DNA of 64,000 nucleotides from a virus (IMGVR_UViG_3300045941_000233:32001-96000), one strand, 5' to 3'; positions 34,835 through 64,000 are shown, counted from the stretch's first letter. Translations and numbers: made by a program. Notes: generated by a model not told the origin, from the sequence alone.

Positions 34835-37153
34835 ATGACGACCATAAACTTTGGCGGACATGAGAGAGGAACGGCGGCGGAAACCGCCATCACTGGCGGT
34901 ACGTTTTCTATTCAGTCCACCACGAAGCGCACCGGCACTTACGCCTTGCAATGCAATCCGGCAAGCGGAGTAGCTGGCTACAACGGCTTTCACAACATCT
35001 TGGCGAACGGTGGCGGCACATCTCTGGCCAGGACCGCCGAAACTTTTTACACGACTTACTTTCGATTTGTCAGCATTCCGTCAGGCACCACTAAGTTTGT
35101 GCAGGTCGTATCGAATACGCCGTCCGATGTTGTGGTAGTGCAGATCGACTCATCGGGGAACGTCAAGCTTGTAGGCACCACAACATCGGCGACGATTGCC
35201 ACGGTAACTTCTGGGACATGGTACAGGCTTGACTTGCGAGTGACCAGCAACGGCACCAGCGGCGCAAGTATCGACGGCGGAGCCGAGCAAACAGTAACAG
35301 CCAACAACATCACGCAAGACAGGTTTGTGCAGGGACGGATTAGCACCGAAGCAGTCGCGATGGACGTGATCTTCGACGATTGGCATATCGACGACGCCGG
35401 GTTTCCTGGCGCGGGCGAATGCCGAATGTGTTCGACCACGGGAGACGGGACATACACGGGATGGGTGACTGGCACTGGCACAACCGAAGCGGAAGTCGAT
35501 GACACTCCGAGCGATGCTGACACCACCTATATCGCCGTGCCGGCCACCGGAGACAACACCGCTCGGACGTTCGCGATGGAGGATTGCACGACGGTTGGCA
35601 TCGAGGGAACGATCCGGGCCGTCAAATGCATCTGCTCCGTTAGAACCGAATCAACCACTGGCTCATCTACGGTTGGATTGCGGGTACGGTCCGGATCGAC
35701 TGACAGCGATACAACCGGTGTGGAATGGACGACGACCTACGCTAATCATCAAAAGCTGCTAACGACCGACCCTAATGGCGGCGGCTCGTGGACAAGCAGC
35801 GGCGTCGATGGCGTCGAGTGCGGTGTATTTGCCGGGTCTATCGCCCAGATTCAGCGCTGCACGACGGTTTCGCTGATGGTGTGGAGTAGCGGCGTAGATG
35901 AGTCCTCAAGTTCCGATTCCAGCGCTTCGTCGGCGAGCTCCGCGTCCTCAATCAGCAGTCTTTCGTCGCTCTCTTCGCCGTCGTCTGCCTCTAGCGCAAG
36001 CTCGATTTCTTCCCTTAGCAGCCTGTCGTCTCTGTCCAGCCAGTCATCGGCTTCCAGCGCCAGCAGTATTAGCAGTGTCAGTGATGCAAGCAGCGGAAGC
36101 AGCGCAAGTAGCGCAAGCAGCCTTTCGTCTCCAAGCAGCGGATCGTCGGCAAGTTCCGCTTCGTCTTTTGGTCCCACGGCCGGCTATCGATCGTTCACGG
36201 CGTTCTGGTTGGGTGGCGCATCGGCGCCAGGAGAGGAAGATTCGTCGTCATCGTCGGTCTCTTCCGCAAGCAGCCAGTCCTCACTCAGCAGCCAGAGCAG
36301 CCTATCGTCGGCGAGCAGCGCGTCGAGCCTGTCGAGCCCTTCCAGCGCGTCATCGCTTTCGTCGCCAAGCTCCGCAAGCTCTCTCAGCAGTCTTTCGTCG
36401 GTGAGCTCGCTGTCGTCGGCGAGCAGCGCATCGTCGGTATCCTCGTTGTCGTCTATTTCCTCACTGTCCCGGCCGTCAAGTTCCAGCAGCCCGACTTCGG
36501 CCAGTTCCGCAAGCAGCCAGTCTAGCGCGTCGTCCGCCTCTTCGCTTAGTTCGGTATCGTCTCAAAGCTCCGGATCGTCGGCGAGTTCTCTTTCTTCTTC
36601 AAGCAGTCTTTCGTCGGCATCATCGGCATCGTCGGCCAGTTCGGCAAGCAGTTTGTCGTCGGTTTCATCTCTTAGCAGCCAGTCATCAGCCAGTTCGGCG
36701 AGCTCTGCGAGCTCGTCAAGCTCCCTGTCATCCCAAAGCAGCCAGTCGTCGGCATCTTCCGCATCCAGCGCGAGCAGTATTTCTTCGCTCAGCAGCCAGA
36801 GCTCGGCGAGCAGCGCATCGTCTGCGAGCTCATTGTCCAGCAGTTTTTCGTCGGCGAGCAGCGATTCTTCCGTCAGCAGCTTGTCGTCACTCAGCAGCCA
36901 ATCGCAGAGTTTTTCTAGCGAGTCATCGTCAACGTCCAGCATGGTCGAGCGGCCGATCTACCCCGGCGACACGGCTTGGTCGCAGCTTGGCCCTGGCGAT
37001 GCAGCTTGGAACCAGCGCGGCCCCGGTAGCGCGTCCTGGACCCAGCGAGGGCCGGCCGGCACAGCCTGGACCCAGCGAGGCCCTGGCGGCGCCGACTTGT
37101 CGCCGCGCGGTCCTGGCGGCATTTCGATTCGACCAAAACGCACTAATCCGTGA
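34835..37153 (+). CDS. serine-rich virion protein 1 (beta-rich N-terminus, ~350-aa Ser tract, C-terminal 10-aa repeats)
   Basis: Ser tract ~35898-36940 with an SSx pattern. Confidence 0.85.
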   Translation: MTTINFGGHERGTAAETAITGGTFSIQSTTKRTGTYALQCNPASGVAGYNGFHNILANGGGTSLARTAETFYTTYFRFVSIPSGTTKFVQVVSNTPSDVVVVQIDSSGNVKLVGTTTSATIATVTSGTWYRLDLRVTSNGTSGASIDGGAEQTVTANNITQDRFVQGRISTEAVAMDVIFDDWHIDDAGFPGAGECRMCSTTGDGTYTGWVTGTGTTEAEVDDTPSDADTTYIAVPATGDNTARTFAMEDCTTVGIEGTIRAVKCICSVRTESTTGSSTVGLRVRSGSTDSDTTGVEWTTTYANHQKLLTTDPNGGGSWTSSGVDGVECGVFAGSIAQIQRCTTVSLMVWSSGVDESSSSDSSASSASSASSISSLSSLSSPSSASSASSISSLSSLSSLSSQSSASSASSISSVSDASSGSSASSASSLSSPSSGSSASSASSFGPTAGYRSFTAFWLGGASAPGEEDSSSSSVSSASSQSSLSSQSSLSSASSASSLSSPSSASSLSSPSSASSLSSLSSVSSLSSASSASSVSSLSSISSLSRPSSSSSPTSASSASSQSSASSASSLSSVSSQSSGSSASSLSSSSSLSSASSASSASSASSLSSVSSLSSQSSASSASSASSSSSLSSQSSQSSASSASSASSISSLSSQSSASSASSASSLSSSFSSASSDSSVSSLSSLSSQSQSFSSESSSTSSMVERPIYPGDTAWSQLGPGDAAWNQRGPGSASWTQRGPAGTAWTQRGPGGADLSPRGPGGISIRPKRTNP
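36961..37120 (+). repeat. 30-nt/10-aa tandem repeat (GxAxWxQRGP), about 5 copies
   Basis: GDTAWSQLGP GDAAWNQRGP GSASWTQRGP AGTAWTQRGP GGADLSPRGP. Confidence 0.8.
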
Positions 37154-37165
37154 TAATTAACCGCT

Positions 37166-37603
37166 ATGCCGTTCCTTGTTTCAGCCCGAAACCGCCGCGA
37201 CCGTGAATGGGACATGACCATTTATGAAGACGACGGCACGACTGAGGTTGTGCTGGCGTCTGACGACGTGGTGCGGCTGAAAATCGGAACCAACGATGAA
37301 GAGCCGCCACTGGACCTATCCAGCCTCGATCCGGACGAAATCACGTTTACCGTCGGCACCGGCGATTGCGTTGTTTATTTGACGGCCGCCCAGGTTGCCG
37401 TCCTTGGCGCCGGCGTCTTCGACTGTGAAGTGAACGTGTACGACGAATCAGAAAACAAGTTCAAGCAGGCAGAATACGGCGCTTTCACCGTTCACCCGAC
37501 GCAGCTTGGCGAGACCGGCGGCGAGCAGTCCAGCAGCAGCGGCGGGAGCTCGGAATCAAGTAGTTCTGGGGGTAGCTCTGAATCTAGTTCGTCGTCGTTC
37601 TAG
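37166..37603 (+). CDS. Ig/BppU-like virion protein with Ser-rich tail
   Basis: Paralogous to the C-terminal domain of 37622-40885; ends EQSSSSGGSSESSSSGGSSESSSSSF. Confidence 0.7.
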   Translation: MPFLVSARNRRDREWDMTIYEDDGTTEVVLASDDVVRLKIGTNDEEPPLDLSSLDPDEITFTVGTGDCVVYLTAAQVAVLGAGVFDCEVNVYDESENKFKQAEYGAFTVHPTQLGETGGEQSSSSGGSSESSSSGGSSESSSSSF

Positions 37604-37621
37604 CGCCTGCGGGTGCGGCGC

Positions 37622-40600
37622 ATGTATTACTACGGACTTCAACAATACGCCTGGCATGAGCTAGGAAATTCCGGCAAGGGGTATTGGAAGCTGCCGGCGG
37701 GCGTTGTCGGCGCGGTCGATCTGCGGACCATTCCCGCCCAATCTCAACGCGGCGGCACTCCGCAAGGCTTTGCGTTTGTTGCGTCAAAAGATCCTGTTGA
37801 CGTGCTGATTTCCAGGGCCGAACACCTTGGAATCGAATTGGCCACAACGGAGATGCGTGACGCTTGGGAAGCCGAACTAGGCTACCGCCCCAACGGCAAC
37901 ACGGTTGCCGATCTGCTTTGGGACATGCTTACCGCCGGCGCGGATCCGACCGGCGATTCAGCCTGCAAGCCGCTCATGCCGGCCAGGGATAACTTTTACG
38001 AATTGTTTTTGGGCGTCCACGGGCTTGTGAAGGATGAAGAGTTTTCTGCGGTGAGCGCGGCCGGCCTGAAATCGCTCGACTTGCTGCGACTCGAATATCG
38101 CCAGCACCGCCAGGATTCTTTAGACGGCTTGCATCGGGACACAAGGGGCCGGGTGGCACCACAGCATTACCGCAAGATTCTCGGCTTTTGGGTGCAAAAG
38201 TATGGCCTGGACTATCGGGCGTTTATTCCAAGCGACATGCCCGACGAGCGGCCGCTGCAGCCGGAAACGACCATTGTTGACGACTTTGATCGCGCCGACC
38301 AAAGCGGTCTCGGAACAGCGTCCGGCGGATTTACGTGGTCGAATCCTATCGGTAGCGTCCGCTGGGATATCGTCAGCAATCAGGCAAAGTACGGCGACGG
38401 AAGCGAGACCGGCGAGGATATCGAGCGGGCGGATGCTGACCTGTCGGGTACAGACCATTACGTCCAGATGAAGGTTGTCGAGGTTTTCGATGGCGGCGGC
38501 CCGGGCTTCTACAACTCGGCAGACACGATTTCGCGGAAAGATAACACGTCCACCGCGACGTACTATCTTGGCCAATGCTTCATCGAAAGCGCAATCAGTT
38601 ACCACCGTCTATACAAAAATGTAAACGGCTCATTTTCGCAGCTTGGGAGCACTGCGGAGACTATCAATGCCAATGAAATTCAGAGGGTAGAGTGCGTCGG
38701 AACGACAATCCGGCTTTTGATCGATTCGGTGATAGTCCATGAAGTCACCGACTCATCGATTTCGACCGGCACGCGCACCGGCATCCGAAACGATTCAAGC
38801 CACGCCGATAATTACACGATTATCGACGATTTTGAGGCCGGCGACCTGGACGCCGACGAATCGTCTGCGAGCTCGGCATCTTCGGCTTCGTCGGTTTCGT
38901 CGCAATCGTCACTATCCAGCCCGTCTTCGCTATCGTCTGCGAGCTCGGCGTCGTCGGCTTCCAGCCAATCGTCGGTGTCCAGCCTGTCTTCCCCAAGCAG
39001 CGCTTCGTCGCTATCGTCCGCGAGCAGCCTGTCCAGCGCGTCGAGCCCTTCGTCGGCTTCCAGCCAGTCGTCAGCTTCAAGTCCGTCTTCCGCGAGCAGC
39101 CAGTCGAGCCAATCGTCGGCGAGCTCGCCGTCTTCCGTCAGCAGCCTTTCGTCGGCGTCGTCAGCGTCCAGCCAGTCTTCGGTATCATCTCTAAGCAGCG
39201 CTTCGTCGCCGTCGTCGGCGAGCTCAGTTTCTTCCCAGAGCGCTAACGTCACGGCCGGCTATCGGTCGATGGCGGCCTTTTGGTTAGGTGGTGCCGCGGC
39301 AACCCCGGAGAGCGCGGCCAGTTCACAATCGAGCGCGTCGTCTCTTTCGTCGGCATCGTCCCTGTCGTCGGCATCGTCTTTGTCGTCGGCCAGCAGCGCC
39401 AGCAGCCAATCGAGCCAAAGCAGCCTATCGAGCGAATCGAGCTCTTCAAGCCTGTCCAGCGCCAGCAGCCAATCGTCAGCGAGCAGTCAGTCGAGCGCCA
39501 GCAGCCTTAGCTCCCAGAGCTCGCTTAGTTCGCCGTCGAGCGCATCAAGCCAGTCCAGCCAATCTTCGGCGTCGTCTGAGTCTTCGGCATCGTCATTGAG
39601 CAGCCCAAGCAGCGAATCGTCGGCCAGCAGCGTCAATAGTTCGTCGTCGTCCAGCAGCATCAGCCAGGTCAGCAGTTCATCTAGCAGCGTCAATAGTTCG
39701 TCGTCGTCCAGTAGTCTCAGCAGCCTTTCGTCGGCATCGAGCCAGTCATCCGCGAGCAGCCTTTCGTCGGAAAGCAGCCCGTCGTCCGCGAGCAGCTTAT
39801 CATCGGCCAGCAGCGCTTCATCGGCCAGCAGCCAATCTTCCGCAAGCAGTCCGTCATCTGCCAGCAGCGCGTCGTCGGAATCGTCGGCTTCGTCGTCGTC
39901 GTCTCTCAGCAGTCAGAGCTCGGCATCGTCTCAAAGCTCGGCAAGCTCACTGTCCAGCGGTTCGAGCGCGTCCAGCGCGTCGAGCGCTTCAAGTGCTTCC
40001 AGCTTGTCGAGCGCTTCGAGCTCTTCCAGTGCGTCGAGTGCTTCGAGCGCGTCAAGCCTGTCGAGCGGGTCCAGCCAGTCGAGCGCGTCAAGTGCTTCCA
40101 GCCAGTCTTCCGCTTCGTCGCTGTCGTCCGGATCGTCGTCGTCCAGCGCGTCATCGGCCAGCAGTGCCAGCAGCCTTTCATCTCTCAGCAGTGCCAGCAG
40201 CGCATCGTCCGCGAGCTCTTCGAGCAGCGCATCGTCGCTGTCGTCTCAGTCGTCGCTTAGTTCCGCGAGCTCGGCCAGTTCCGCAAGTTCGGCAAGCTCC
40301 CTTAGCTCGGGCAGTAGTTCGTCATCGTCTTTTAGTAGTTCGTCGTCTTCGTCCTTTAGTAGCTCATCGTCTTCGTCTCTCTCTTCGCTTTCGTCATCGT
40401 CGCTTTCGTCATCGTCCAGCAGCCATTCGAGCTCTAGCGTCATTGAGGGCTTGGCAACCGCCCGGATGGGCATTGCCAGCTTTATGCTTCACGTCCGCAA
40501 CCGCCGGGACCGCGAATTTGATCTGATAATTTTCGAAAGCAACCGGCCAGTCGAAATTGTGCTGACGGAAAACGATGTCGTCCGGTTCAAGGTTTTCGAA

Positions 40601-40885
40601 AACGAAAAAACGCCAATCCTGGATCTGTCGAGCCTCGATCCGGGCCAGATTACATTTACCGCCGGGACCGGCGAATGCGTCGTCAACCTGACCGCCAGCC
40701 AGATAGAAAGCCTCGGCGCCGGCGCATGGGATGCTGAAATCAGCGTTTGGGTGGAGTCCGAAGACAAACTGAAGAACACCGGCAGCGGCGTTATTTTTGT
40801 GCATCCTACGCAAACCGGGCAACATGCGGGCGAAGAGTCCAGCAGTTCCGGCAGCAGCGAGAATTCCTCAGTTTCCTCGTTCTAG
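37622..40885 (+). CDS. serine-rich virion protein 2 (N-terminal domains, ~525-aa Ser tract, C-terminal Ig/BppU-like domain)
   Basis: Ser tract ~38855-40440; start 37613 or 37622. Confidence 0.85.
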   Translation: MYYYGLQQYAWHELGNSGKGYWKLPAGVVGAVDLRTIPAQSQRGGTPQGFAFVASKDPVDVLISRAEHLGIELATTEMRDAWEAELGYRPNGNTVADLLWDMLTAGADPTGDSACKPLMPARDNFYELFLGVHGLVKDEEFSAVSAAGLKSLDLLRLEYRQHRQDSLDGLHRDTRGRVAPQHYRKILGFWVQKYGLDYRAFIPSDMPDERPLQPETTIVDDFDRADQSGLGTASGGFTWSNPIGSVRWDIVSNQAKYGDGSETGEDIERADADLSGTDHYVQMKVVEVFDGGGPGFYNSADTISRKDNTSTATYYLGQCFIESAISYHRLYKNVNGSFSQLGSTAETINANEIQRVECVGTTIRLLIDSVIVHEVTDSSISTGTRTGIRNDSSHADNYTIIDDFEAGDLDADESSASSASSASSVSSQSSLSSPSSLSSASSASSASSQSSVSSLSSPSSASSLSSASSLSSASSPSSASSQSSASSPSSASSQSSQSSASSPSSVSSLSSASSASSQSSVSSLSSASSPSSASSVSSQSANVTAGYRSMAAFWLGGAAATPESAASSQSSASSLSSASSLSSASSLSSASSASSQSSQSSLSSESSSSSLSSASSQSSASSQSSASSLSSQSSLSSPSSASSQSSQSSASSESSASSLSSPSSESSASSVNSSSSSSSISQVSSSSSSVNSSSSSSSLSSLSSASSQSSASSLSSESSPSSASSLSSASSASSASSQSSASSPSSASSASSESSASSSSSLSSQSSASSQSSASSLSSGSSASSASSASSASSLSSASSSSSASSASSASSLSSGSSQSSASSASSQSSASSLSSGSSSSSASSASSASSLSSLSSASSASSASSSSSASSLSSQSSLSSASSASSASSASSLSSGSSSSSSFSSSSSSSFSSSSSSSLSSLSSSSLSSSSSSHSSSSVIEGLATARMGIASFMLHVRNRRDREFDLIIFESNRPVEIVLTENDVVRFKVFENEKTPILDLSSLDPGQITFTAGTGECVVNLTASQIESLGAGAWDAEISVWVESEDKLKNTGSGVIFVHPTQTGQHAGEESSSSGSSENSSVSSF

Positions 40886-40943: not shown

Positions 40944-41732
40944 ATGATTTGCAAAAAGGCCGAATGCCTCGTTTTTATGAAGCTCGCGACCTCCCTCTCG
41001 CAAGAGGATGAGGCGCTATTCGATCTGATTCACCCGCTGGCTGAGTCGAGTCTCTTGAATTGGATTGGCCAGGAGCTTCAGCACCAGCAATTCGTCGAAT
41101 TCCTGCCGATTGGCCAGTCGTTTTCTAATCGGGCGCCGCTACTCCAAACCAATTATGCCGTGGGCGGCGGCACGCAAGACGTCGAATGGCGATCGTCATC
41201 GACCGCGATCATCACGGCCGGCAATGGGACCGAGTTTTTGCAACTCGAAAATACGCCCGTTTCGCTCACCGGTCTGCAGGTGAAGGAAAACCCTGGCGGG
41301 TATGCCGGACAGGCCGAAGGAAGTTTTGGCGATGATACGGTTTTGGCTTTGGGGGTCGATTACTACCTGGACGTTGACAATCCGGCCAGCGATATCAGCA
41401 AAAGCGGCATTCTGTACCGGAATGGCTCTTGGCCGACGGAGCCGCGGAGCATCAAGGTAAGCTATTTCGGCGGCTACACTGCCCAGCAACTAAGCGGAAA
41501 CATGGCCGGGGTCGTGAAGCTGGCGGCGATGCAGTGCATTGCGGCCGCGTTTTGGAAGGCCAAGGTTTTAGCCAAAACTAACGGGCTTGGACCGTACACG
41601 TCCGAGTCGATCGGCAAATACAGCTATGCCATCTCTTCCATGGCTTCCGCCGGCCATCTGACGTTCGACGTTCCGGCCGACGCCCGCCGGCAATTGTTCA
41701 GTTTGAAGAGCCTTGGTCGAATCTTCGGCTAG
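40944..41732 (+). CDS. head-tail connector/adaptor protein
   Basis: IKVSYFGGY, VKLAAM and SESIGKYSY motifs; position. Confidence 0.75.
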   Translation: MICKKAECLVFMKLATSLSQEDEALFDLIHPLAESSLLNWIGQELQHQQFVEFLPIGQSFSNRAPLLQTNYAVGGGTQDVEWRSSSTAIITAGNGTEFLQLENTPVSLTGLQVKENPGGYAGQAEGSFGDDTVLALGVDYYLDVDNPASDISKSGILYRNGSWPTEPRSIKVSYFGGYTAQQLSGNMAGVVKLAAMQCIAAAFWKAKVLAKTNGLGPYTSESIGKYSYAISSMASAGHLTFDVPADARRQLFSLKSLGRIFG

Positions 41733-41743
41733 GAGGGCCAGCT

Positions 41744-42127
41744 ATGTCAGCCATCGCGGCCGATTGGAGCGACCGGATTCTCGACTATTACGACGACGTG
41801 AGCCACGTCGGCCCGCTGGCCGGTTGCACGCACAGCGGCGAGCTCACAAACGCTTCATGCGGCGATCGGGTGGCCATGGAGATGATTATTTCGGCCGGCC
41901 ACAAGATCGTTGCGGCGGCCTTTACGGCCCGCGGCTGTTGTCTTAGCCGGGCGGCGGCCGCGATGCTGGCGGAGAAGATCCAGGGCCTGCCGCTTGGCCT
42001 GGCGTCACAGATTCACGATGACGGCATGATCGAGCTCGTTGGCGTCGGAATCTCGCCCGCCCGCCGGGGCTGCGTCCTATTGCCATTGCGTGCTTTCAGG
42101 CTGGCGATTGCGGAGTACATCGTATGA
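41744..42127 (+). CDS. IscU/SufU-like Fe-S cluster scaffold protein
   Basis: ILDYYDD..HVG, NASCGD, FTARGCCLSRAAAAML, ISPARRGCVLLP; the three conserved Cys are present. Confidence 0.85.
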   Translation: MSAIAADWSDRILDYYDDVSHVGPLAGCTHSGELTNASCGDRVAMEMIISAGHKIVAAAFTARGCCLSRAAAAMLAEKIQGLPLGLASQIHDDGMIELVGVGISPARRGCVLLPLRAFRLAIAEYIV

Positions 42128-50963: not shown

Positions 50964-51364
50964 CAGGGCCGGCCGCCAGACCAATCGAAGTCGGATTAGG
51001 CACATGGATTGAAAAATCTTGGGGCTGGTTCCGGACACTGTTCCGCGACGATCAAGTCGAAATTGTCGAGGCCGAGATTGTCGCCGGCGGCTATAGCAGT
51101 CAGCACAAGCACCTATACAAGAGCAACACGTTCCAAGTGATAACCGGCGAGCTCGAAGTCCAGACCTATCCGGCGTCACTGAAGCCGACGAAGTACGTTC
51201 TGACGCCAACGGCCGATTCGATCACCATCCCGGCATTTGTTCCGCATAAGTTTTTCGCTCCGCAAGCCACGCGACTAATTGAAACATACGTCGCTTCGCA
51301 GCGCGGCCGCGCCATCGAGCCAGACGATATAGTCCGGTTCAGTGACGGGGGAATTAGGAAGTGA
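50960..51364 (+). CDS. cupin-domain protein (sugar isomerase-like)
   Basis: EKSWG, SSQHKH..F.VITGEL, IPAFVPHKF. Confidence 0.75.
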   Translation: MTGPAARPIEVGLGTWIEKSWGWFRTLFRDDQVEIVEAEIVAGGYSSQHKHLYKSNTFQVITGELEVQTYPASLKPTKYVLTPTADSITIPAFVPHKFFAPQATRLIETYVASQRGRAIEPDDIVRFSDGGIRK

Positions 51365-55110: not shown

Positions 55111-55843
55111 CGCGCAGTATTACGACCAAATCTATTCCGGCGGACGGAAGCGGAACTACTCGCGCGAAGTTGACGTCATCGCGTCGTTTTTTGGTGAACT
55201 GCAGACCAACGGCCGACAGATAGTCGATTGGGGGTGCGGGACCGGTGAGCATCTTTCCCGCTGGCCGGCAGCGGCCCCCGGCTGGCAGGCTTCCGGCTTC
55301 GATCCATCCGACGGCATGGTTCAAATCTGCCAGCGAAAGGGCCTGGACGTTTATCACGGCGACATTTGCTCGACGCTGCCATGTCACGGGCTGGCGCCGG
55401 CGGCCGTGCAGACGTGCTTGTTTGGCGCTTTTGGTTATGCTGCCGCCGGCCCGGACTCCCGCGGCATGAACGCGGCCCTCGATAACGTGAAATGGTGGGC
55501 GGCTTCCGGCGGGCTGTTCATTCTCGACGTCGTGAATTATTTGGCCGCCGCTTGTCATCTTCGATCGCAAGATTGTTATCAGTGTCCGGAACTGCGCCGC
55601 ACGTTCCGCAAGCGGTTCGATCTGGAAGAATCTCTGCTGCATTATGAAATCGAGTACGAGCCGGCCAATGCGGCTTCTTTCGTGGAATCGCACGTCATGC
55701 GCGCCTTCACTCCGCGCGAGCTCCGCCAGGCCCTGCGGCTGAATGGGTTTGACGTTTTGCATTGCTTCGATCCAGAATCCGCGCAGATGTCGAAGCCGGG
55801 GCCGGAGAGCTTCTATTTCATGCTGGTAGCGCGGAAGCGATGA
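55064..55843 (+). CDS. class I SAM methyltransferase
   Basis: YYDQIY, DWGCGTG, GFDPSDGM, GGLFILD. Confidence 0.85.
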   Translation: MTFPMSSKPLQPFARSAQYYDQIYSGGRKRNYSREVDVIASFFGELQTNGRQIVDWGCGTGEHLSRWPAAAPGWQASGFDPSDGMVQICQRKGLDVYHGDICSTLPCHGLAPAAVQTCLFGAFGYAAAGPDSRGMNAALDNVKWWAASGGLFILDVVNYLAAACHLRSQDCYQCPELRRTFRKRFDLEESLLHYEIEYEPANAASFVESHVMRAFTPRELRQALRLNGFDVLHCFDPESAQMSKPGPESFYFMLVARKR

Positions 55844-56040: not shown

Positions 56041-56937
56041 ATGGACGAAGCTGTTAAGACAGTGACCGCCGACGATCTGACGCCAGAGATGCGAAAGGTG
56101 ATGAGAATCCTTCATGGCGGACAGCGAACGATAGTATCCATCGCCCGCGAGCTCGGCTGCCAATATCGAATCTCTGACGCCAGCGTTCGCCGGTTGAGAG
56201 ATATCGGGCTTATCGAAATCGGCGAGCGGGAGATTGTTTCGCTGACTGAAGCCGGCCGCGGATTTGACCTTCAAACTTCAACCAGCAAAAAGCTTCAGAA
56301 TCTGACATTCAACGCCGGAATGATGCCGAAGCAGATTGAGGCGGCCGAAAAGAAACTGGAAAGAAAGATCAACAGGGAGATAGCCCGGGCTCACAGGCGA
56401 AAAGTCGGCTTAATAGAAGAACTGGACAGGGGATTCGTCACGTCCCCGTCGATGCCTGAACTTCCTGACGATTTCGTTCAGACGGCGGCCGAAGAGTGCC
56501 GGATTGCCATCCGCCGCGGGAATTTCGATTCGCTGCACGAACTGGCCGAGGATTTCCGCGAGCGATGGGACCGGATTCGGCTGGCCATGTCGCCGCTGGC
56601 GAAGAAGCCGATTGGACTCAGGCTGGCGACTTATCTCAGCGAGTGCCAGCACCCCGACACCGGGAAATTGATCGACGTGCGGATTGTTAATGCCGTCGAA
56701 AAGGTATGTCCGGCCACGCTTGGTTCGGTTCTGGAAAATTGGCCGAATGCGTTCGCCGGCCAGGCCAACGTCGGCCAGCTAATGATCGAATTGCTTGGCA
56801 AAGTCCTGTTGAGTGCCGGGCTCATCGACAGCGAAGAACACGACCGGCGCATGACCGATTCCGGCCTGAAGGACATACTTCGCCGCAAGAAACACCGCAA
56901 GCAGTGCGAGGAAGAATTGCGCTATGCCGTTGCTTAG
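56041..56937 (+). CDS. winged-helix domain protein (possible regulator)
   Basis: TIVSIARELG..VRRLRDIGLIE..SLTEAG. Confidence 0.6.
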   Translation: MDEAVKTVTADDLTPEMRKVMRILHGGQRTIVSIARELGCQYRISDASVRRLRDIGLIEIGEREIVSLTEAGRGFDLQTSTSKKLQNLTFNAGMMPKQIEAAEKKLERKINREIARAHRRKVGLIEELDRGFVTSPSMPELPDDFVQTAAEECRIAIRRGNFDSLHELAEDFRERWDRIRLAMSPLAKKPIGLRLATYLSECQHPDTGKLIDVRIVNAVEKVCPATLGSVLENWPNAFAGQANVGQLMIELLGKVLLSAGLIDSEEHDRRMTDSGLKDILRRKKHRKQCEEELRYAVA

Positions 56938-57739
56938 CCAGGACTTTGACGCCGACCTGACGGCTATCACGGTTGGCCTGTCGCGCGACTACAAAGGGCC
57001 GCCCTACGCTTTTTCGCGGTGGGCCGACGGCGAATGGGCTGTGGCGTTTGGGAAGTACCATTACGCCCAGTCCGACGGCTGGCAATGGAAAGACGGGCAC
57101 CGCAATTTGCTTTCCGATTGCCTACTGGACTCGCTGGCTTATTGCGACCCTGGATGGTATGTCGGCATTACGTGCGAGCCACATCACCCGCAGATTCACG
57201 CCGATCTTTTGAAGTACGTCAACGTGCCGCCGGAGCAACTGACGTTCGCCGAAGTCTTTATTTTTGCCAATTATTGGCGGTGGGCGCAGATTGATATCGC
57301 CGGCTGCCTGACCGTCGGCCCGGGCGGCGACTTCAATGTCCCAGACAATGGCGTCGAAACCGGCTGGCTGTGGCACGATCTGGCCGAAGAGATGATCGAG
57401 GAAGCCGGCGGACCGATCCTGGTTGCCGCCGGACCGCTGTCGAATGCCATTATTTACGAGTATTGGCGCCGCAGTGCTCACCGGCCGGCCTGTCGGCAAG
57501 TGATTCTGGACGTCGGCAGTGCCTTGCGGCTTACCAAGCGATCGAGGGCCGCCCCTGGCCCATACCGGGTCGTCGGCGACAGGCTGGTTCGCGTCCGCGG
57601 CCGCCGTAGCAGCATCACGCGCGAATATCAGCGGATGGAGCGGCCGGCGGCCAAGTGGCGCCCCGGCTGGAAATTGAAGCCCGGCGAGCAGCCCGGCATT
57701 CCCGGGTATGAATTGACGGATTCCGAGGGCGAGCCGTAG
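56924..57739 (+). CDS. GT-D/DUF1792-like glycosyltransferase
   Basis: FSRWADGE (cf. RFGDGE), LVAAGPLS and ILDVGSAL. Confidence 0.55.
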   Translation: MPLLSQDFDADLTAITVGLSRDYKGPPYAFSRWADGEWAVAFGKYHYAQSDGWQWKDGHRNLLSDCLLDSLAYCDPGWYVGITCEPHHPQIHADLLKYVNVPPEQLTFAEVFIFANYWRWAQIDIAGCLTVGPGGDFNVPDNGVETGWLWHDLAEEMIEEAGGPILVAAGPLSNAIIYEYWRRSAHRPACRQVILDVGSALRLTKRSRAAPGPYRVVGDRLVRVRGRRSSITREYQRMERPAAKWRPGWKLKPGEQPGIPGYELTDSEGEP

Positions 57740-57748
57740 CGTTCGGAC

Positions 57749-58873
57749 ATGGAAGTCGGCGGCCCTTATTCTGCTTTGAAGGTTTTCCACCACAGAGACC
57801 GGCTGGAACAGCTAAAGCGCGGCGAGCAGATCGTCCCGACGCAGCTTCAGATAATTCTCAGCGACCTTTGCAACCACGATTGCAGCTTTTGTTCGTATCG
57901 ATGGTCCGGATACACGTCGAACGAGCTTTTTACCGCCGGCGCCGAGCTCGCCGCGTTTGGGACCAATAACCCAAACCGGATGCTGCCTTACGAGAAAGTG
58001 ATCGAAGTTCTGGACGACTGCCAGGAGATGGGCGTTCAGGCGATCCAGTACACCGGCGGCGGCGAGCCGACGGTTCACCCCAAACACCGCGAGCTATTCC
58101 AGGCGACGATCGACCGCGGCCTGCAGTTTGCGCTAGTGTCCAACGGCGCCATTTTCCGGAAGGCGTCCGCCGACGTTCGATCGACCGTCGATTTGCTGCT
58201 GGAAGCGGCTTGGGTGCGGTTTTCGATCGACGCCGGCAATTCGAACACCTACTCCGCCATCCGCCGCATACCGAAAACAATATTCAGGCAGGTAATCGAC
58301 AACATTCAATCACTCGTTGACGCCAAGGCTGCCGCCGGCCGCGGTCCGATCATCGGAATCGGGTTTGTCGTCACAAAGGAAAACTGGCGCGAAGCGGCTC
58401 AGGCGGCCGAGCTCGCGAAGACGATTGGCGCCGACAATATTCGCATCAGCGCCGTTTTTCAGCCGGACGACGACGCCTATTTTCGGGACTTTCATCTCAA
58501 TGCGGCCGCCGCGTGCCGTGAGGCCACAAAATTCGCCGACGCGAGCTTTGCTGTCTTCAATCGATTCTCGGACCGGCTAGAGGATCTTCACGACAAGCAC
58601 CCCGACTACTCGTTTTGCGGCTATCAGCAATTCAATTGCTACCTGGGCGGAGACATGTCCGTGTACCGGTGTTGCAACACGGCCTATTCGCTGCACGGTC
58701 TCATCGGTTCGATCAAGGATCAACGATTCAAGGATTTGTGGGCGTCCGAAGTGAAGCGGCGAAAGATTGGCGACTTTGACGCCAGCGGCTGTCCGAGATG
58801 TATGTTCAATCGCGTCAATAAGACGATCAACTACGCGCTTGGCGAAAAGGCTGAGCATACGGCTTTCGTATGA
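57749..58873 (+). CDS. radical SAM protein with SPASM/twitch domain
   Basis: CNHDCSFC, TGGGEP, VYRCC, CPRC. Confidence 0.9.
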   Translation: MEVGGPYSALKVFHHRDRLEQLKRGEQIVPTQLQIILSDLCNHDCSFCSYRWSGYTSNELFTAGAELAAFGTNNPNRMLPYEKVIEVLDDCQEMGVQAIQYTGGGEPTVHPKHRELFQATIDRGLQFALVSNGAIFRKASADVRSTVDLLLEAAWVRFSIDAGNSNTYSAIRRIPKTIFRQVIDNIQSLVDAKAAAGRGPIIGIGFVVTKENWREAAQAAELAKTIGADNIRISAVFQPDDDAYFRDFHLNAAAACREATKFADASFAVFNRFSDRLEDLHDKHPDYSFCGYQQFNCYLGGDMSVYRCCNTAYSLHGLIGSIKDQRFKDLWASEVKRRKIGDFDASGCPRCMFNRVNKTINYALGEKAEHTAFV

Positions 58874-59715
58874 CGATTTACCTGAATCCAGAAATACGAT
58901 CCGGCTTGGGCGAAGATACGTTCTGGACTTGGGCCGCGAGGGAATTCCCCGGGGCGACATTCGATAGTCCGCCGGGCCGCCCGCTTAACGCCGACGAAGT
59001 TGTGCTGCAATACAGCACGCTTGGACATCCACAAAACGCCGACGACAACACGGTCGCGCTGCTTTGGGAACTTCACCCCGAGATGCGATTGCAACTCGAC
59101 AGTCAGGAGTGGAACGAAGTTATCGAGCGGACCGAGCTATGTGCCGCCGGCTGCCATCGTCGCGCCGTCTCCACCCGTTTCGCTGTGCCTTTTTATGAGC
59201 GATTCGGCAAGGTCGATATCCTGCCGATTGGCGTGGACTGCGATCTATTCCAGCCACAACCGGAAAACGTCAGGCAGGCAACACGGCTCTTGTCTTGTGT
59301 TCCGAACGACGCCCGCGTCGGCTTCTGGATGGGCACCAATCACCGCATGAAGGGCAGCGATCGGCTAGTCCAGTATGCCCGCGACAATCCGGACATTTTC
59401 TGGATCGTCGTTTGGAAGTCGAAGCGCGAGCGCGGCGAGGCGCCGGTCAATTCAAAGGAATACGTTCATGTCACCCAGGACGTGCTTGCTGGGCTGATGG
59501 CCTGCTCTGATTTCCTGCTGGCCACTGGCCGTCTGCGGCCCTGGTTCATGGTCGAGTGGGAGGCGATGGCCGCCGGCTTGCCGGTTGTCGATCTGAGCGG
59601 CCTGGAACGCGAATTCGCGCCGTCGGCAAATCCGCGACAGCAAGTGATTGAGCTTGGCTGGGACCGGAAGACGGCAAGGGAAACCTGGCTGAAATATTTG
59701 GGAATTCAAGGATGA
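58870..59715 (+). CDS. GT-B (GT4-like) glycosyltransferase
   Basis: PIGVDCDLF, MKGSD, WEAMAAGLPVV. Confidence 0.75.
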   Translation: MTIYLNPEIRSGLGEDTFWTWAAREFPGATFDSPPGRPLNADEVVLQYSTLGHPQNADDNTVALLWELHPEMRLQLDSQEWNEVIERTELCAAGCHRRAVSTRFAVPFYERFGKVDILPIGVDCDLFQPQPENVRQATRLLSCVPNDARVGFWMGTNHRMKGSDRLVQYARDNPDIFWIVVWKSKRERGEAPVNSKEYVHVTQDVLAGLMACSDFLLATGRLRPWFMVEWEAMAAGLPVVDLSGLEREFAPSANPRQQVIELGWDRKTARETWLKYLGIQG

Positions 59716-60476
59716 CATACCGCCCGCGCATCTCCATTGCCGCCCTGATTTACCGCTCGACACGGTTCGCCGATTCGGTTTACGCATCGCTTCAGGAATT
59801 CACGCCATGGCTTCAGGATCCAGAGGCGCGTACCCGGTTTTTCTTTGTCCTGAACGATCCAGAAAAGGGCCTGCTTGGCCACATCATGCAAAAGGGCTAT
59901 CCGTGGGTTATGCACCACGTCCCGAAGCCCTGGCTGACTGAGGATGAGCTCTTCGCGCAGGGCTACGGCACCCCCGAGTACATTTCGCGCGTTTATCGGG
60001 CGTGGAATCACGCCATCATGCACGGCGACGAAATTTGCGTCCTGGTGAATAGCGACCACATTTTTTCGCCGAACTGGCTAGAAAACCTGATTCGGCCGCT
60101 GCTTGAAAACCCGCGGCAGTTGGTTTGCTCTCAGGCGATCGAGCTCCCGGGCTTCAACGGCGCCTGGCCGGTCGATTTCGGCCGAAAACTCGACACGTTC
60201 CGCAAGGATGAATTCCTGGAATTCGTCGAAGCAAACAAGCAGCCGGGAGTCGTGCGGCCGAGCGGGGTCTATATGCCGGTGGCGTTCTATCGCCACTTTG
60301 CCATCGGCGCCGGCCTGTACCCGGAAGGCAACCTGCACGGCGGACGGTACGACAAGATTGCCAAATTCGGCGATGCCGCGTTTTTTGAAAGAATGGAAGA
60401 AAAATACAATATCCAGCACGTTACAGCGATGGACTCCATAGTCTATCACTTTCGAGAGGCTGAGAGGCTGGAATGA
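59712..60476 (+). CDS. GT2-like glycosyltransferase
   Basis: RAWN, LVNSDHIFSPNWLENL, GDAAF, VYHF. Confidence 0.7.
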   Translation: MTYRPRISIAALIYRSTRFADSVYASLQEFTPWLQDPEARTRFFFVLNDPEKGLLGHIMQKGYPWVMHHVPKPWLTEDELFAQGYGTPEYISRVYRAWNHAIMHGDEICVLVNSDHIFSPNWLENLIRPLLENPRQLVCSQAIELPGFNGAWPVDFGRKLDTFRKDEFLEFVEANKQPGVVRPSGVYMPVAFYRHFAIGAGLYPEGNLHGGRYDKIAKFGDAAFFERMEEKYNIQHVTAMDSIVYHFREAERLE

Positions 60477-61273
60477 ACACCGAAGATACGCAGGGAATCA
60501 GAAGTAGTGTTTTACCGTCGAAGGGCAGAGTGGTTTACGAGTTCTCTGCGGACCCGAACGCAGAGTACCGTCCTGTCTTAAATTTCCCCAATTATGCTGT
60601 CGGATCGGACGGGACAGTATGGACTGCTCATGGCGGCTGGATTAAGCAGATGAAGGTCAATTCTTTCAACAAGAAATATAACGGATGTAATCTTGTATGC
60701 GGCAGCCGAAGGAGACGGGTTTGCATTCATACGCTTGTCTTGGAGGCTTTTGTTGGCCAGCGCCCAAAAGGCATGAGTTGCCGACATTTAGACGGAAACG
60801 GATTTAATAATCGACTCGACAATCTAAAGTGGGGGACTCCGCTAGAGCAGTCTGGGGACCAAAAAAGACACGGGACGAATCTGATCGGATCAAGACAAAA
60901 CAAGTCCAAGCTATCTGAAGTGGACATTGCGGCAATCAAAAAAATGCTAATCGGCAATGTGCCAACAAAGGAGATTGCATTTTATTTTGGAGTTTCCTCG
61001 AACACGATAACGAGAATCGCAAGCAACAAAACATGGAAGCACGTAAAAACGGCTCCGGTCCCTCTAAAAGACAGGGCTGGCCAGAAAGGAAGCGACCATT
61101 ACGCAGCAAAAATCAGCGAAGACATTGCCAGGGAAATATTTGCCAGGTCGAGGGCCGGCGAGAGCGGCCGTTCACTTGCCATGGAGTTTGACGTTTCAAG
61201 CCAACTTGTCAGCAATATCATTCGCGGCAAAGCATGGAAACATGCAACTCGACAACTCCAAATTTCAGCATGA
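60473..61273 (+). CDS. NUMOD4/HNH homing endonuclease-like protein
   Basis: NYAVGSDG, HTLVLEAFVG..CRHLDGNGFNNRLDNLKW; two C-terminal HTH-like repeats; visibly A-richer than its flanks. Confidence 0.9.
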   Translation: MNTEDTQGIRSSVLPSKGRVVYEFSADPNAEYRPVLNFPNYAVGSDGTVWTAHGGWIKQMKVNSFNKKYNGCNLVCGSRRRRVCIHTLVLEAFVGQRPKGMSCRHLDGNGFNNRLDNLKWGTPLEQSGDQKRHGTNLIGSRQNKSKLSEVDIAAIKKMLIGNVPTKEIAFYFGVSSNTITRIASNKTWKHVKTAPVPLKDRAGQKGSDHYAAKISEDIAREIFARSRAGESGRSLAMEFDVSSQLVSNIIRGKAWKHATRQLQISA

Positions 61274-61938
61274 GCCACCACCCGTCAGCAATTGCGATCT
61301 ACGATGCCGTTCCGCGGTCTGTCCTGGCTGCCGCGAGGGAGTTCATTGAATCGCTTGGCCCTGAAAGCTTCGACGTCTATTCGCACCCTTTCGAGCCGAA
61401 AATCCAGGTCAAAAAACAGCTTTACAACAACTTGGCGCTATGGCGGGTCGTCCTTGCGATCAATGAGCGGTTTGGCCATCTGTTCGCGCAAATGTTTGGC
61501 GATCTGCCGGCCCTGCAGCCATCCTCCAACTACTTCCGGGCGTTTTACATCTACCGCACCGGCGACTATCTGCAGAACCACATCGACGCCGCATTCCACG
61601 ACAACGAGCGGAAAGTCGTCACGGCCAATCTGTATCTGACCGACTGCGAGGGCGGGGAGTTGTTTGTTGGCGATCAAGCCATCCCGCCGGCCGCCGGCTG
61701 CCTGGTGGTCTTCGCCAATCGCGACAATGCCTATCATCGCGTCAGTCCGGTTCGATCTGGCCGCCGGATCATGCTCACCACTGGATTTTGCATGCCGGCC
61801 GACATGTTTCCGCGGCCGGACTTCACCTGGAACAACAAAAAAGCTTGGTTCGCGCCGGCGCCAGGCGAGGAATGGACCGAAGAGCAATTCAAGATGCGAA
61901 ACGAGCGAGCGGACCCGAATTGGAGGCCCGTGAAGTGA
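61270..61938 (+). CDS. 2OG-Fe(II) oxygenase
   Basis: HID, NLYL..EGGEL, YHRVSPVRSGRR. Confidence 0.85.
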   Translation: MSHHPSAIAIYDAVPRSVLAAAREFIESLGPESFDVYSHPFEPKIQVKKQLYNNLALWRVVLAINERFGHLFAQMFGDLPALQPSSNYFRAFYIYRTGDYLQNHIDAAFHDNERKVVTANLYLTDCEGGELFVGDQAIPPAAGCLVVFANRDNAYHRVSPVRSGRRIMLTTGFCMPADMFPRPDFTWNNKKAWFAPAPGEEWTEEQFKMRNERADPNWRPVK

Positions 61939-62393
61939 GTCGCGAGTATCGCAGCGTCAACCTTGGCGCTGGCCCCTACAAAACCCCGGGCTGGACGAAT
62001 ATCGACATCAATCCGGCACACAAGCCGGATATCGTGCGCGACGTCCGCCGCGGCCTGCCGTTCGACGATTCAAGCTGCGAGCACGTTCGAACGAGCCATT
62101 TTTTGGAACATCTGGCAAATGACGACATGATTTGGCTGATGGGAGAGATTTACCGGGTTTTGAAGCCCGGCGGCCACTGGCAGATCGTCGTTCCGCTGGG
62201 CTGCACCGGCGAGCTCGACCACAAAATGCAATTCACGGAAGGGAGCTTCGATATCCTGACGCGGCCCGAGACGTCCGACTATTTTCAGCAGCCGATGCGA
62301 TGGGAAGAGGTCGAAGGCATGCGCCGAGTTGAGGAAGAGCCGACGCGCAAGGGAGTCTTTTCGCTGCATTTGAGGTTGCGGGCGATCAAATGA
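61935..62393 (+). CDS. SAM methyltransferase (Methyltransf_11-like)
   Basis: NLGAG, LPFDD, SHFLEH, YRVLKPGG; GTG start in a GTGA overlap. Confidence 0.85.
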   Translation: MSREYRSVNLGAGPYKTPGWTNIDINPAHKPDIVRDVRRGLPFDDSSCEHVRTSHFLEHLANDDMIWLMGEIYRVLKPGGHWQIVVPLGCTGELDHKMQFTEGSFDILTRPETSDYFQQPMRWEEVEGMRRVEEEPTRKGVFSLHLRLRAIK

Positions 62394-63112
62394 AATGCTC
62401 GATCGTCATGGCGACACATGAGCGGCCGGAGCTCTTGGCCCGCACGCTCGACAGCATCGCCCGCCAGCGGCCGCCGTTCGAATTCGAAGTGATTGTCGTC
62501 GATGACGGTTCCGAGTCGCCGGAGATACAGCGGATTGTTACGGCGCGAGGATACGGGTATTTCCGGATCGACCGCGAGCCAGGCTATCGCAATCCCGGTC
62601 CGGCCAGGAATTTCGGATATCGGGTTGCCCGCGGGGAAGTGGTCATCTGCCAGAGCGACGATGTAGTGCACCGGTCGGCGGACTGCATCGCAAAGCTGGT
62701 GAAACTTGTCGCAAACGACAATTTCGTCATTGCGACGGTGTTCAACGGCGACATAGACGACTGCGAGCTCCCGAACGACGTTTACACGTCGCCGCAAAAG
62801 CCATCGCCGCTGTTTTTCCTGGGTGCCATTCAGCGCCGGCACATCTACGCCATCGGCGGCAATGACGAAGATTTCACAGAGCCGGGCTACGACGACAACT
62901 ATTTCGCGGACTGTCTCATCCAGGGCCTGGGGCTGACGCCGCTGTTCACCGACGAAGTTGTCGGAATCCACCAAAAGCATGAGCGTCCGCGACTGGTTGG
63001 CGCCTATCGCCACATGCGAGCCATTTACGAGCGGAAATTCGCCTACTCCAAAGCCAAAGGGGTATGGGTGGCGATCGGTGGCGCGTGGCCGATGGATAGG
63101 CCGACGGTTTGA
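62390..63112 (+). CDS. GT2 glycosyltransferase
   Basis: SIVMATHER, VIVVDDGS, ARNFG, QSDD, GYDD. Confidence 0.9.
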   Translation: MKCSIVMATHERPELLARTLDSIARQRPPFEFEVIVVDDGSESPEIQRIVTARGYGYFRIDREPGYRNPGPARNFGYRVARGEVVICQSDDVVHRSADCIAKLVKLVANDNFVIATVFNGDIDDCELPNDVYTSPQKPSPLFFLGAIQRRHIYAIGGNDEDFTEPGYDDNYFADCLIQGLGLTPLFTDEVVGIHQKHERPRLVGAYRHMRAIYERKFAYSKAKGVWVAIGGAWPMDRPTV

Positions 63113-63144
63113 CGATTTGCGGGCGGCTTTTCTAGTCTCGCCCG
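63109..63144 (+). promoter_or_regulatory. putative leaderless promoter
   Basis: TTGACG-N18-TAGTCT-N6-ATG(63145). Confidence 0.5.
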
Positions 63145-64000
63145 ATGGACTCCGCCCCAACTGTCTCCCAGCGCATCGATCTACTACGCGCCGCGAACCT
63201 GCTTCCCGCCGGCGGGCCGCTTCCGACGCCGCGATTTACGCCAACTGACCGATGGACTGGCCGAGTTTTCTGCGGCATTGCAAGCTTTGAGCGGCATACC
63301 AGCGACGAAGGCTGGCAGCTTCAGATTGGACTACAGCACGCCGGATATTTGCTGGCCGGAAAGAATCTTCCATTCGACGAAACCGATATCGACGAAATAA
63401 CGCTTTACGCCAAAGCCGGCACGCTGATCCTTCAGGACAAGCGCGAATGGGATCCGTCAAACGACGCTTGCATCGACAAAAGTGAGGCTTTCGAGTGCTA
63501 CGAATACATGAAGGACGATTACGACGATGTTTTCAAGCTGACGATCTGTAAAGACGCGCACGCCCGGCCGGACTATCACCGCCAGGCCAGCGACGAAATC
63601 GGCTGCCACGCCTGGATTTGCTACTACCACCCCGACATTGTTTGTGCGCTGGCGCCGTGGATCCGGCGGGAGCACGTCATCCGGACTTGGCATTCGGTCG
63701 ATTCGGCCGCCGTGCCGCCGTACAACGCCGACGATCATGTCGCCGGCTGCCTGATTTCCGGGGCCGTGACTCGCGAACTGTATCCGTTCCGGACTCGAAT
63801 CCGAGACGCCCATAAGGCCGGCCGTCTCAAAAGCACGGCCATCATGCACCACCCGGGCTATCACGCCCGCGGGAGCCATACGCCGCTATTCCTGAAGATG
63901 CTCAGCCGGCACAAGGTTGCCATCTGCACGGCCAGCATTTTCGGCTATGCCCTTCGCAAGATTATCGAGGCGACGGCTTGCGGGTGCCGCGTCATCACCG
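63145..64000 (+). CDS. partial GT-B (CgeB/GT4-like) glycosyltransferase (not in ORF track; runs off the window)
   Basis: Open frame MDSAPTVSQR...LYPFR...GYALRKIIEATACGCRVIT. Confidence 0.7.
   Translation, partial: MDSAPTVSQRIDLLRAANLLPAGGPLPTPRFTPTDRWTGRVFCGIASFERHTSDEGWQLQIGLQHAGYLLAGKNLPFDETDIDEITLYAKAGTLILQDKREWDPSNDACIDKSEAFECYEYMKDDYDDVFKLTICKDAHARPDYHRQASDEIGCHAWICYYHPDIVCALAPWIRREHVIRTWHSVDSAAVPPYNADDHVAGCLISGAVTRELYPFRTRIRDAHKAGRLKSTAIMHHPGYHARGSHTPLFLKMLSRHKVAICTASIFGYALRKIIEATACGCRVIT

Follow-up and report, generated by a model that had tools for sequence, protein, structure and literature searches.

A candidate protein O-glycosylation cassette accompanying poly-serine, fiber-like proteins in a tailed phage

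Virion glycosylation by phages, O-glycosylation by Maf-type transferases, and serine-rich glycoproteins are each already known. To our knowledge, glycosylation of phage virions has been documented so far in a few mycobacteriophages, in which it shields the particles from antibodies. Glycosylated hair-like filaments or capsids are also known from the Bacillus exosporium (BclA), Mimivirus, and PBCV-1, with unusual 4-amino-4,6-dideoxy sugars or a viral GDP-mannose dehydratase. According to PMC12619734 (citing Freeman et al. 2023), glycosyltransferases (GTs) of mycobacteriophages Che8, Corndog, and Myrna modify the phages' own structural proteins at terminal extensions. Here we describe a 64,000-nucleotide stretch of tailed-phage DNA (IMGVR_UViG_3300045941_000233, bases 32001-96000 of a single virus record of 104,285 bp; hereafter the window, from whose first base positions are counted), in which two proteins with very long serine tracts are followed by a cluster of glyco-enzyme genes headed by a Maf-like GT. 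In the literature we found no description of such a combination in phages, nor of the Maf-like/GT-A/cupin cassette presented below. We consider it probable that the phage encodes a cytoplasmic protein O-glycosylation system whose main acceptors are its own poly-Ser particle proteins.

Poly-Ser proteins and the Maf-like enzyme

The elements on which this reading turns are as follows.

34835-37153, + strand: P0001, 772 amino acids (aa)
36179-36220 (approximate), + strand: hydrophobic island in P0001, residues 449-462, AGYRSFTAFWLGGA
37166-37603, + strand: 145-aa beta-sandwich module with an acidic Ser tail ending in ...SSF
37613-40885, + strand: P0002, 1090 aa
39254-39295 (approximate), + strand: hydrophobic island in P0002, residues 548-561, AGYRSMAAFWLGGA
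49574-50596, + strand: Maf/GT42/DUF115-like glycosyltransferase, first gene of the cluster and candidate Ser O-glycosyltransferase

Both P0001 and P0002 translate without stops. P0001 comprises a double beta-sandwich (residues 1-356), an (SSX)n tract (residues 357-703, with Ser at 219 of 347 positions), and a C-terminal end made of three GP(G/A)xxxW(T/N)Q repeats, while P0002 comprises a conserved N-terminal region (residues 1-416), an (SSX)n tract (residues 417-943, Ser 351/527), a beta-sandwich module, and an acidic Ser tail at the C-terminus. An earlier note on this DNA, made from the sequence alone, had put the tracts at about 350 and 525 aa, in agreement with the 347 and 527 residues measured. 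They consist almost wholly of Ser-Ser-X triplets, in which X is mainly A, L, Q, P, or V, also I, and each is interrupted by one near-identical 14-residue hydrophobic island (AGYRS[FM]xAFWLGGA). Within the tracts, the six Ser codons all occur, at the first as at the second Ser of a triplet, in proportions close to those in the rest of the genome (AGC 0.31-0.32, TCG 0.28-0.35, and the remaining four 0.07-0.12 each). Since Tandem Repeats Finder recovered only short and degenerate arrays (65-88% matches) in the DNA of the tracts, the periodicity resides in the protein and not in slippage-prone DNA. The Ser tracts are real and under protein-level selection, as the earlier note had argued from their mixed codons.

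The fold of the P0001 N-terminus points to the virion. Residues 1-356 of P0001 were modeled as two beta-sandwich domains (predicted local distance difference test, pLDDT, 89), with a predicted fold resembling ConA-like polysaccharide lyases, tandem CBM22, and sialidase lectin domains, as well as uncharacterized phage proteins of 320-360 aa (template modeling score 0.7-0.78), one of which is annotated as a virion structural protein. At the level of the predicted fold, this double ConA-like/CBM-like beta-sandwich, like that of phage virion proteins, bears out the lectin-like heads proposed in the earlier note. Homologues of the P0001 N-terminus, up to 59% identical, bear quite different non-Ser C-terminal parts, and homologues of the P0002 N-terminus (P0004 and P0005) continue into other, fiber-like parts. 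The 145-aa module is 54% identical to P0002 residues ~957-1073, making it a paralogue of the P0002 C-terminal domain; it gave weak Atlas leads to BppU_N-/LtfC-like attachment folds. In contigs with related capsid proteins, poly-Ser or poly-Ser/Thr tracts follow LamG_3, or PKD plus a pectate-lyase-like beta-helix, and end in the same GPxxxW repeats or the same beta-sandwich module as P0001 and P0002, and another phage with a Maf-like gene has a poly-Ser protein with a BclA_C-like head. In this lineage of phages, the Ser tract is thus a stalk that can be exchanged and that links modular domains.

By PHROGs assignment of the surrounding genes, P0001 and P0002 fall within a 15-kb accessory structural block between the capsid and adaptor genes, in which a LamG_3 protein is encoded as well. 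We infer from their gene position and from fold matches that both are virion proteins. Besides the long tracts, short acidic Ser tags occur at four places, namely the C-termini of the 145-aa protein and of P0002, near the C-terminus of the 47277-48302 product, and inside the 33845-34549 product.

33001-33840, + strand: LamG_3 (ConA-like lectin) protein (PF13385, E 6.6e-12; PHROG 'virion structural protein')
33845-34549, + strand: protein with the short internal acidic Ser tag, seen in its sequence
47277-48302, + strand: protein encoded after the tape measure gene, with a Ser tag near its C-terminus, whose homologue in a related prophage (G006, below) has a long Ser tract

The cluster opens with the gene that the earlier note had called DUF115-like. 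Its product matches a PHROG sialyltransferase family (E 1.8e-10) and belongs to a family of 1187 clusters at 50% identity. The single protein found no match in a PDB sequence search; a profile of 59 family members matches CstII (E 0.002) through the GPS and LGxxxxYLxGxDF motifs. Aligned to CstII by its GxGPS and LGxxxxYLxGxDF...Y motifs, the family has S97, D249, and Y258 invariant in all 59 members. The structural model (pLDDT 93.6) contains a predicted MptE-like Rossmann core, and its top Foldseek matches are CstII and Maf. In VIA-align, Maf (5MU5) is the best match (Z 14.1, root-mean-square deviation 3.7 over 197 residues), followed by the MptE HPPK (Z 10.7) and CstII (Z 10.6). Judging from the model, the enzyme would work most like Maf, although we do not file it as a member of the Maf family because its PF01973 score lies below the cut-off. 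A Maf enzyme has been reported to accept Kdo (3-deoxy-D-manno-octulosonate) as donor (PMC11339370).

Linkage of Maf-like genes to poly-Ser reading frames

Scanning IMG/VR with the Maf-like alignment yielded 135 relatives, for which 80 loci were fetched. Poly-Ser open reading frames (ORFs), taken to be those no shorter than 100 aa in which Ser makes up 60% or more (or Ser+Thr 75% or more) of a stretch of 40 residues, were sought within 10 kb. Such an ORF, always on the same strand, accompanied the Maf-like gene in 46/80 loci and, after clustering at 70% identity, in 11 of 20 clusters, with GC contents of 27-70%. None was present in the 11 control loci fetched with the dehydratase (Gmd), giving Fisher p values of 2e-4 by loci and 2e-3 by clusters for a control of only 11 loci. 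Many of the loci negative for poly-Ser ORFs extend for under 2 kb past the downstream end of the Maf-like gene. The earlier note had proposed examining whether Ser-rich structural genes and GT clusters co-occur across related phages, and this comparison of Maf-like genes with poly-Ser ORFs backs the proposed link. As the enzyme cassette adjoins Ser-tract proteins in many unrelated phages, the phage studied here probably sugar-coats its own fibers.

Domain fusions strengthen the linkage. Phages of low GC have the Maf-like and GT8-like domains in one fused protein and the GT-A-like protein fused to a radical S-adenosylmethionine (SAM) domain, with a cupin gene nearby, and these fused cassettes adjoin Ser proteins of 903-1782 aa with up to 68% Ser. 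In the fusions at one such locus (L065), Pfam detected Radical_SAM (joined to GT-A) and, weakly, GT8 (E 0.005). As read from the sequences, the fusions tie four cluster enzymes together beside very large Ser proteins.

The arrangement is retained in G006, a syntenic prophage in a Planctomycetaceae metagenome-assembled genome (MAG) with a 53% identical capsid protein. Retained there are a 338-aa Ser protein, a homologue of the 145-aa module, and, from the tail region, a protein in which long runs of Ser occur. Of the enzymes, G006 keeps the cupin, the Maf-like one (54%), both GT-A-like proteins, methyltransferases, and the aminotransferase; radical SAM, GT2_4, and GT8-like genes lie at the other end of the prophage. 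A search for GT2 found none in the phage regions of five related records and G006, and GT2 therefore stands outside the conserved core. Full-length Maf-like copies were found in 7/201 Planctomycetaceae genomes, and a poly-Ser ORF lay nearby in 2/5 of the chromosomal Maf-like loci examined. One Planctomycetaceae chromosome (L163+L164; G039:C1 ~2.19-2.22 Mb) carries, within ~15 kb, a 573-aa Maf-like/GT-A fusion, GT-A-like and GT8-like genes, and a 2055-aa Ser-rich protein; the cassette is thus not restricted to phages.

We tentatively suggest a wider reading, as a possibility to which we give somewhat less than an even chance. It holds that a Maf-like enzyme (often fused to GT8), a virus-specific GT-A-like enzyme (often fused to radical SAM), a small cupin, and often a KdsB-like enzyme form a widespread and portable virus cassette that makes mucin-like bottlebrushes out of the poly-Ser tracts in fiber or decoration proteins, with an ulosonic acid (e.g., Kdo) O-linked to Ser as the possible starting unit. 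The cassette would be at work in phages whose hosts differ greatly (GC 27-70%) and at certain loci on bacterial chromosomes too.

A separate observation concerns a phage clade of GC 64-70%, in which the gene starting directly 3' of the Maf-like gene encodes 500-630 aa rich in Ser, Gly, and Thr, including a Hint (intein-like) domain (L125:10726-12321 and about 30 similar loci among L083-L139). Many of these contigs stop there, perhaps through assembly breaking in the repeat.

The glyco-enzyme cluster, its phage, and the probable host

The cluster, which the earlier note had given as more than 14 kb, is present and larger: it spans ~21 kb, from 49574 to a window-equivalent position of ~70886 (L001:6886), beyond the window's end. 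It is co-directional and on the same strand as the tail genes, begins 36 nt past the last tail-region gene, and contains many 4-nt gene overlaps. Its products (about 30) look soluble, with no convincing membrane segment (two borderline hydrophobic matches only), flippase, or polymerase among them. Following the Maf-like gene, the cluster reads as follows.

Between the Maf-like gene and the cupin gene, + strand: 119-aa protein, placed by gene order
50960-51364, + strand: small cupin (Pfam/NCBIfam), which accompanies the Maf-like gene in 10 other loci
51361-52149, + strand: virus-type GT-A-like protein (DxD motif, conservation, and Atlas leads to 'putative glycosyltransferase' look-alikes)
52143-52811, + strand: Methyltransf_24-type methyltransferase, with its true start near MGDS
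53246-54007, + strand: conserved 253-aa protein, probably GT-A-like (DxD, conservation, Atlas leads), kept in G006 and in a second relative, G001
54040-55110 (within ORF 53791-55110), + strand: GDP-perosamine-synthase-like DegT aminotransferase (Pfam E 2.4e-82)
55064-55843, + strand: class I SAM methyltransferase (Pfam/NCBIfam), overlapping the end of the aminotransferase gene
56924-57739, + strand: conserved 271-aa protein with a homologue in G006
57749-58873, + strand: radical SAM enzyme with a SPASM domain (Pfam/NCBIfam)
58870-59715, + strand: possible GT-B glycosyltransferase, weak (Pfam Glyco_trans_1_4, E 0.0056)
59712-60476, + strand: possible GT2 glycosyltransferase, weak (Pfam E 1.2e-4)
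60473-61273, inserted in mid-cluster: HNH endonuclease with a helix-turn-helix domain, whose G001 homologue lies at a different genomic position
61234-61938, + strand: 2-oxoglutarate (2OG)-Fe(II) oxygenase, prolyl-hydroxylase-like (PF13640, E 3.3e-12)
61788-62393, + strand: methyltransferase (Pfam/NCBIfam)
62390-63112, + strand: GT2 glycosyltransferase, solid (Pfam E 8.3e-21)
63145-64000 and past the window's end, + strand: 363-aa gene, an ORF with no function assigned

Beyond the window follow genes for a reprolysin-like peptidase, a second radical SAM enzyme, and GT2_4, GT32-like, and GT8-like enzymes. Pfam or NCBIfam confirmed each of the cupin, three methyltransferases, aminotransferase, radical SAM enzyme, and 2OG oxygenase named in the earlier note. 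Its count of about seven GT-like genes fared less evenly, with one solid GT2 (62390-63112), two weak matches (58870-59715 and 59712-60476), and two proteins called GT-A-like on their DxD motif, conservation, and Atlas leads. For the second of these GT-A-like proteins (53246-54007), neither Pfam nor NCBIfam gave a match, and the GT-A-like profile (A4) found no solved relative by sequence in the PDB. The same PDB sequence search returned no match for the 271-aa protein. The GT8-like profile (A3) matches glycogenins (E 2e-7), and its alignment has an invariant DxD and an invariant C-terminal H-x-H-G-x-K-H region. In the PDB, the aminotransferase comes closest to two perosamine synthetases (3BN1 and 3DR4, E 1e-54), with the next match trailing by some nine orders of magnitude, and it falls below the cut-offs of the NCBIfam equivalogs PseC, LegC, and ArnB. 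An ORF at 51483-52811 was considered as one gene and rejected, its N-terminal half being an alternative frame of the conserved 51361-52149 gene. The HNH endonuclease is probably a mobile element. The reprolysin-like zinc metallopeptidase (L001:1173-2456, genome 97173-98456; Pfam E 3.5e-5; 10% Ser) could process glycoproteins.

Three genes relevant to activated sugars lie outside the cluster.

7746-8813, + strand: GDP-mannose 4,6-dehydratase (Pfam E 1.7e-115; NCBIfam gmd equivalog, 417.4 bits against a cut-off of 415)
13951-14739, + strand: KdsB-like CMP-sugar (ulosonic acid) synthetase (PF02348, E 2.3e-24)
14721-15248, + strand: GNAT acetyltransferase adjoining the KdsB-like gene (NCBIfam rimI-type, 90.6 bits, over the cut-off)

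The KdsB-like protein scores 160 bits against the NCBIfam KdsB subfamily, under the cut-off of 193. In three related planctomycete-type phages, a homologue of it sits immediately upstream of the Maf-like gene. Synthesis of nonulosonic acid by the phage itself was considered and rejected, the genome having no NeuB-type synthase.

The virus is a near-complete tailed phage (93%, CheckV estimate). An exact 120-bp direct repeat occupies genome positions 1-120 and 104056-104175; as the second copy stops 110 bp short of the record's end, it is not a clean terminal repeat. PHROGs identified a prohead protease (22230-23774), an HK97-type capsid protein (23812-25482), a head-tail adaptor (40944-41732), a neck protein, and a tape measure protein (44576-46339), and a 686-aa ORF was read as the large terminase. 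Neither the structural region nor the 686-aa ORF nor the capsid protein matched any of 50,697 deposited phage genomes (megablast, tblastn), and that collection thus contains no sequenced isolate of the lineage. Metagenomes, on the other hand, yielded relatives of the capsid protein by the hundreds, on contigs of ~95-110 kb, and an alignment of these relatives recovered prophages in Planctomycetaceae and Pirellulales MAGs, on which account the host is, by sequence relationship, most probably a planctomycete. When the P0002 N-terminus, the capsid protein, or the aminotransferase was used as a single query, scans of viral contigs gave no match, and all viral-contig relatives were obtained by alignment-based scans; the output of the metagenome scan was mostly short contigs.

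Some further genes were noted in passing. A NifU-like Fe-S cluster scaffold gene (41744-42127; PHROG 8429, E 1.3e-16) sits amid the head-tail joining genes and could serve the two radical SAM enzymes of the phage. The window also contains ORFs at 11375-12001 and 12214-13230, and a 351-aa phage protein has a prepilin-type N-terminal methylation motif (Pfam N_methyl, E 3e-5; L002:5229-6284, - strand, genome coordinates).

Possible mechanism, alternatives, and known systems

In the mechanism that we infer, the phage would make activated sugars late in infection, with the GDP-mannose 4,6-dehydratase, the perosamine-synthase-like aminotransferase, and methyl- and acetyltransferases yielding a modified GDP-4-amino-4,6-dideoxyhexose, and the KdsB-like synthetase yielding a CMP-activated ulosonic acid such as Kdo. 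Initiation would fall to the soluble Maf-like transferase, which would place a sugar on Ser hydroxyls in both the (SSX)n tracts and the short acidic Ser tags, probably with the CMP-ulosonic acid made by the KdsB-like enzyme as donor. The glycans might then be extended by GT8, GT-A, and GT2 enzymes, and the radical SAM, 2OG oxygenase, and methyltransferase enzymes might decorate them or tailor the sugars. The expected product is a set of long, mucin-like stalks joining ConA-like or beta-sandwich domains on the virion.

Several points weigh against glycosylation of the Ser tracts. A counterpart of the CstII catalytic His is not evident or conserved in the family alignment, and the Maf-like protein scores 13.9 bits against a PF01973 cut-off of 34.6 (its fused relatives L065 and L070 reach 29-30 bits, also under the cut-off). 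The control set was small, at 11 loci, and three of the five Planctomycetaceae chromosomal Maf-like loci examined have no poly-Ser ORF within 15 kb. Moreover, bacterial glycoside hydrolases have polyserine linkers without known modification. Finally, G001, an 86-kb IMG/VR relative and provirus (estimated 81% complete), carries neither Ser tract nor tag, yet keeps the Maf-like and both GT-A-like genes. Since G001 keeps these three core GTs without a Ser tract, the tracts are not the sole possible target. Beside its Maf-like gene, it also encodes a GT9 heptosyltransferase-FkbM methyltransferase fusion (L030, record 3568-7484) and RfaE-like/ADP-heptose-type kinase and nucleotidyltransferase genes. 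Of the link that the earlier note drew between Ser tracts and glyco-enzymes, the genomic linkage, the fusions, and the predicted fold stand, the G001 locus speaks against it, and glycosylation itself is the proposed outcome.

The gene content of G001 is what one would expect if the Ser tracts were unmodified flexible spacers, as polyserine linkers are in bacterial glycoside hydrolases, and the glyco cluster acted on something else in the phage, for example other virion proteins that lack such tracts. The occurrence of the P0001 and P0002 N-terminal domains elsewhere on non-Ser stalks, with the tract being one interchangeable spacer among several, is also consistent with such a role. We nonetheless think it unlikely, as it leaves unexplained both the fused cassettes and the pairing of Maf-like genes with poly-Ser ORFs in 46/80 loci from distant phage groups, and a spacer would have nothing to hold apart where short acidic Ser tags sit at protein termini. 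That pairing would also be unexplained if the cluster modified the host envelope (lipopolysaccharide, LPS, or another surface glycan) in lysogenic conversion, in superinfection exclusion, or as a sugar supply for host structures. Perosamine, Kdo, and heptose are typical LPS sugars, candidate enzymes for which are encoded in the phage or its relatives, and both G001 and G006 are proviruses. Yet the roughly 30 cluster products include no convincing membrane-spanning protein, flippase, polymerase, GtrA/B, or undecaprenyl-phosphate transferase, the cluster is packed in the late structural operon straight after the tail genes, and the nearest structural relative of the Maf-like enzyme acts on protein, all of which makes modification of the envelope a still weaker candidate in our judgment.

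Hypermodification of phage DNA by the GTs, for which phage GTs, 2OG oxygenases, and methyltransferases can serve (PMC12619734 and work cited there), seems very improbable. The genome has neither a thymidylate-synthase-like hydroxymethylase nor a Tet/JBP oxygenase; the oxygenase in the cluster is not Tet_JBP but belongs to a prolyl-hydroxylase-like family. Furthermore, the encoded pathways would give GDP- and CMP-sugars typical of glycoconjugates, and linkage to poly-Ser ORFs would again find no explanation. We therefore retain O-glycosylation of the phage's own poly-Ser proteins as the probable function of the system. Should a portable Maf-like cassette use poly-Ser tracts as acceptors, long flexible fibers densely coated with sugar would be borne by many uncultured phages, from those of Planctomycetes to those of low-GC hosts. 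This would bear on how such phages recognize hosts, on how they adhere to mucus and polysaccharide matrices, and on how stable their particles are. Low-complexity Ser tracts would be a new type of acceptor for Maf-like enzymes, several virus-specific protein families now without annotation would gain a function, and the compact pair of enzyme and tag would be a candidate for glyco-engineering.

Compared with described systems, the locus shares with the serine-rich repeat protein (SRRP) adhesins (Fap1, GspB, PsrP, SraP) very long Ser-rich tracts joined to globular binding domains and linked, dedicated GTs that include GT8-type extenders. The earlier note's comparison with these adhesins fails as a matter of family membership, however. 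No GtfA/GtfB GT4 pair was recognized, the one weak Glyco_trans_1_4 match (E 0.0056) aside; Pfam and PHROGs results for the cluster and structural genes contained no accessory Sec genes (SecA2/SecY2/Asp); no LPXTG anchor was seen on reading the P0001 and P0002 C-termini; and the setting here is a phage of a Gram-negative-type host. BclA and the giant viruses differ in their acceptor repeats (collagen-like GXT in BclA), enzymes, and hosts. Polyserine linkers of glycoside hydrolases join carbohydrate-binding or enzymatic modules and are much shorter than the phage tracts; we know of none that is tied to a dedicated GT cassette or is glycosylated.

The closest likeness is to Maf (Magnetospirillum 5MU5; C. 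botulinum, PMC11339370), which is the best fold match and soluble. By analogy, the phage enzyme would transfer a CMP-activated ulosonic or nonulosonic acid to Ser/Thr residues in a protein that ends up displayed on a filament, and a CMP-sugar synthetase is likewise encoded alongside. It differs in consisting of the central domain only, without the N- and C-terminal domains of Maf, in its fusion to GT8 in other phages, and in its presumed acceptor, a low-complexity Ser tract instead of a folded flagellin surface; Pfam and PHROGs scans of the phage ORFs tested found no flagellin or flagellar genes. From the mycobacteriophage systems, as described in PMC12619734, the locus is set apart as follows: the acceptors there are short C-terminal extensions of capsid or tail-tube subunits, whereas the candidates here are tracts of 350-530 residues in accessory fiber-like proteins, accompanied by a ~21-kb cluster, the phage's own sugar-nucleotide synthesis, and a Maf-like enzyme.

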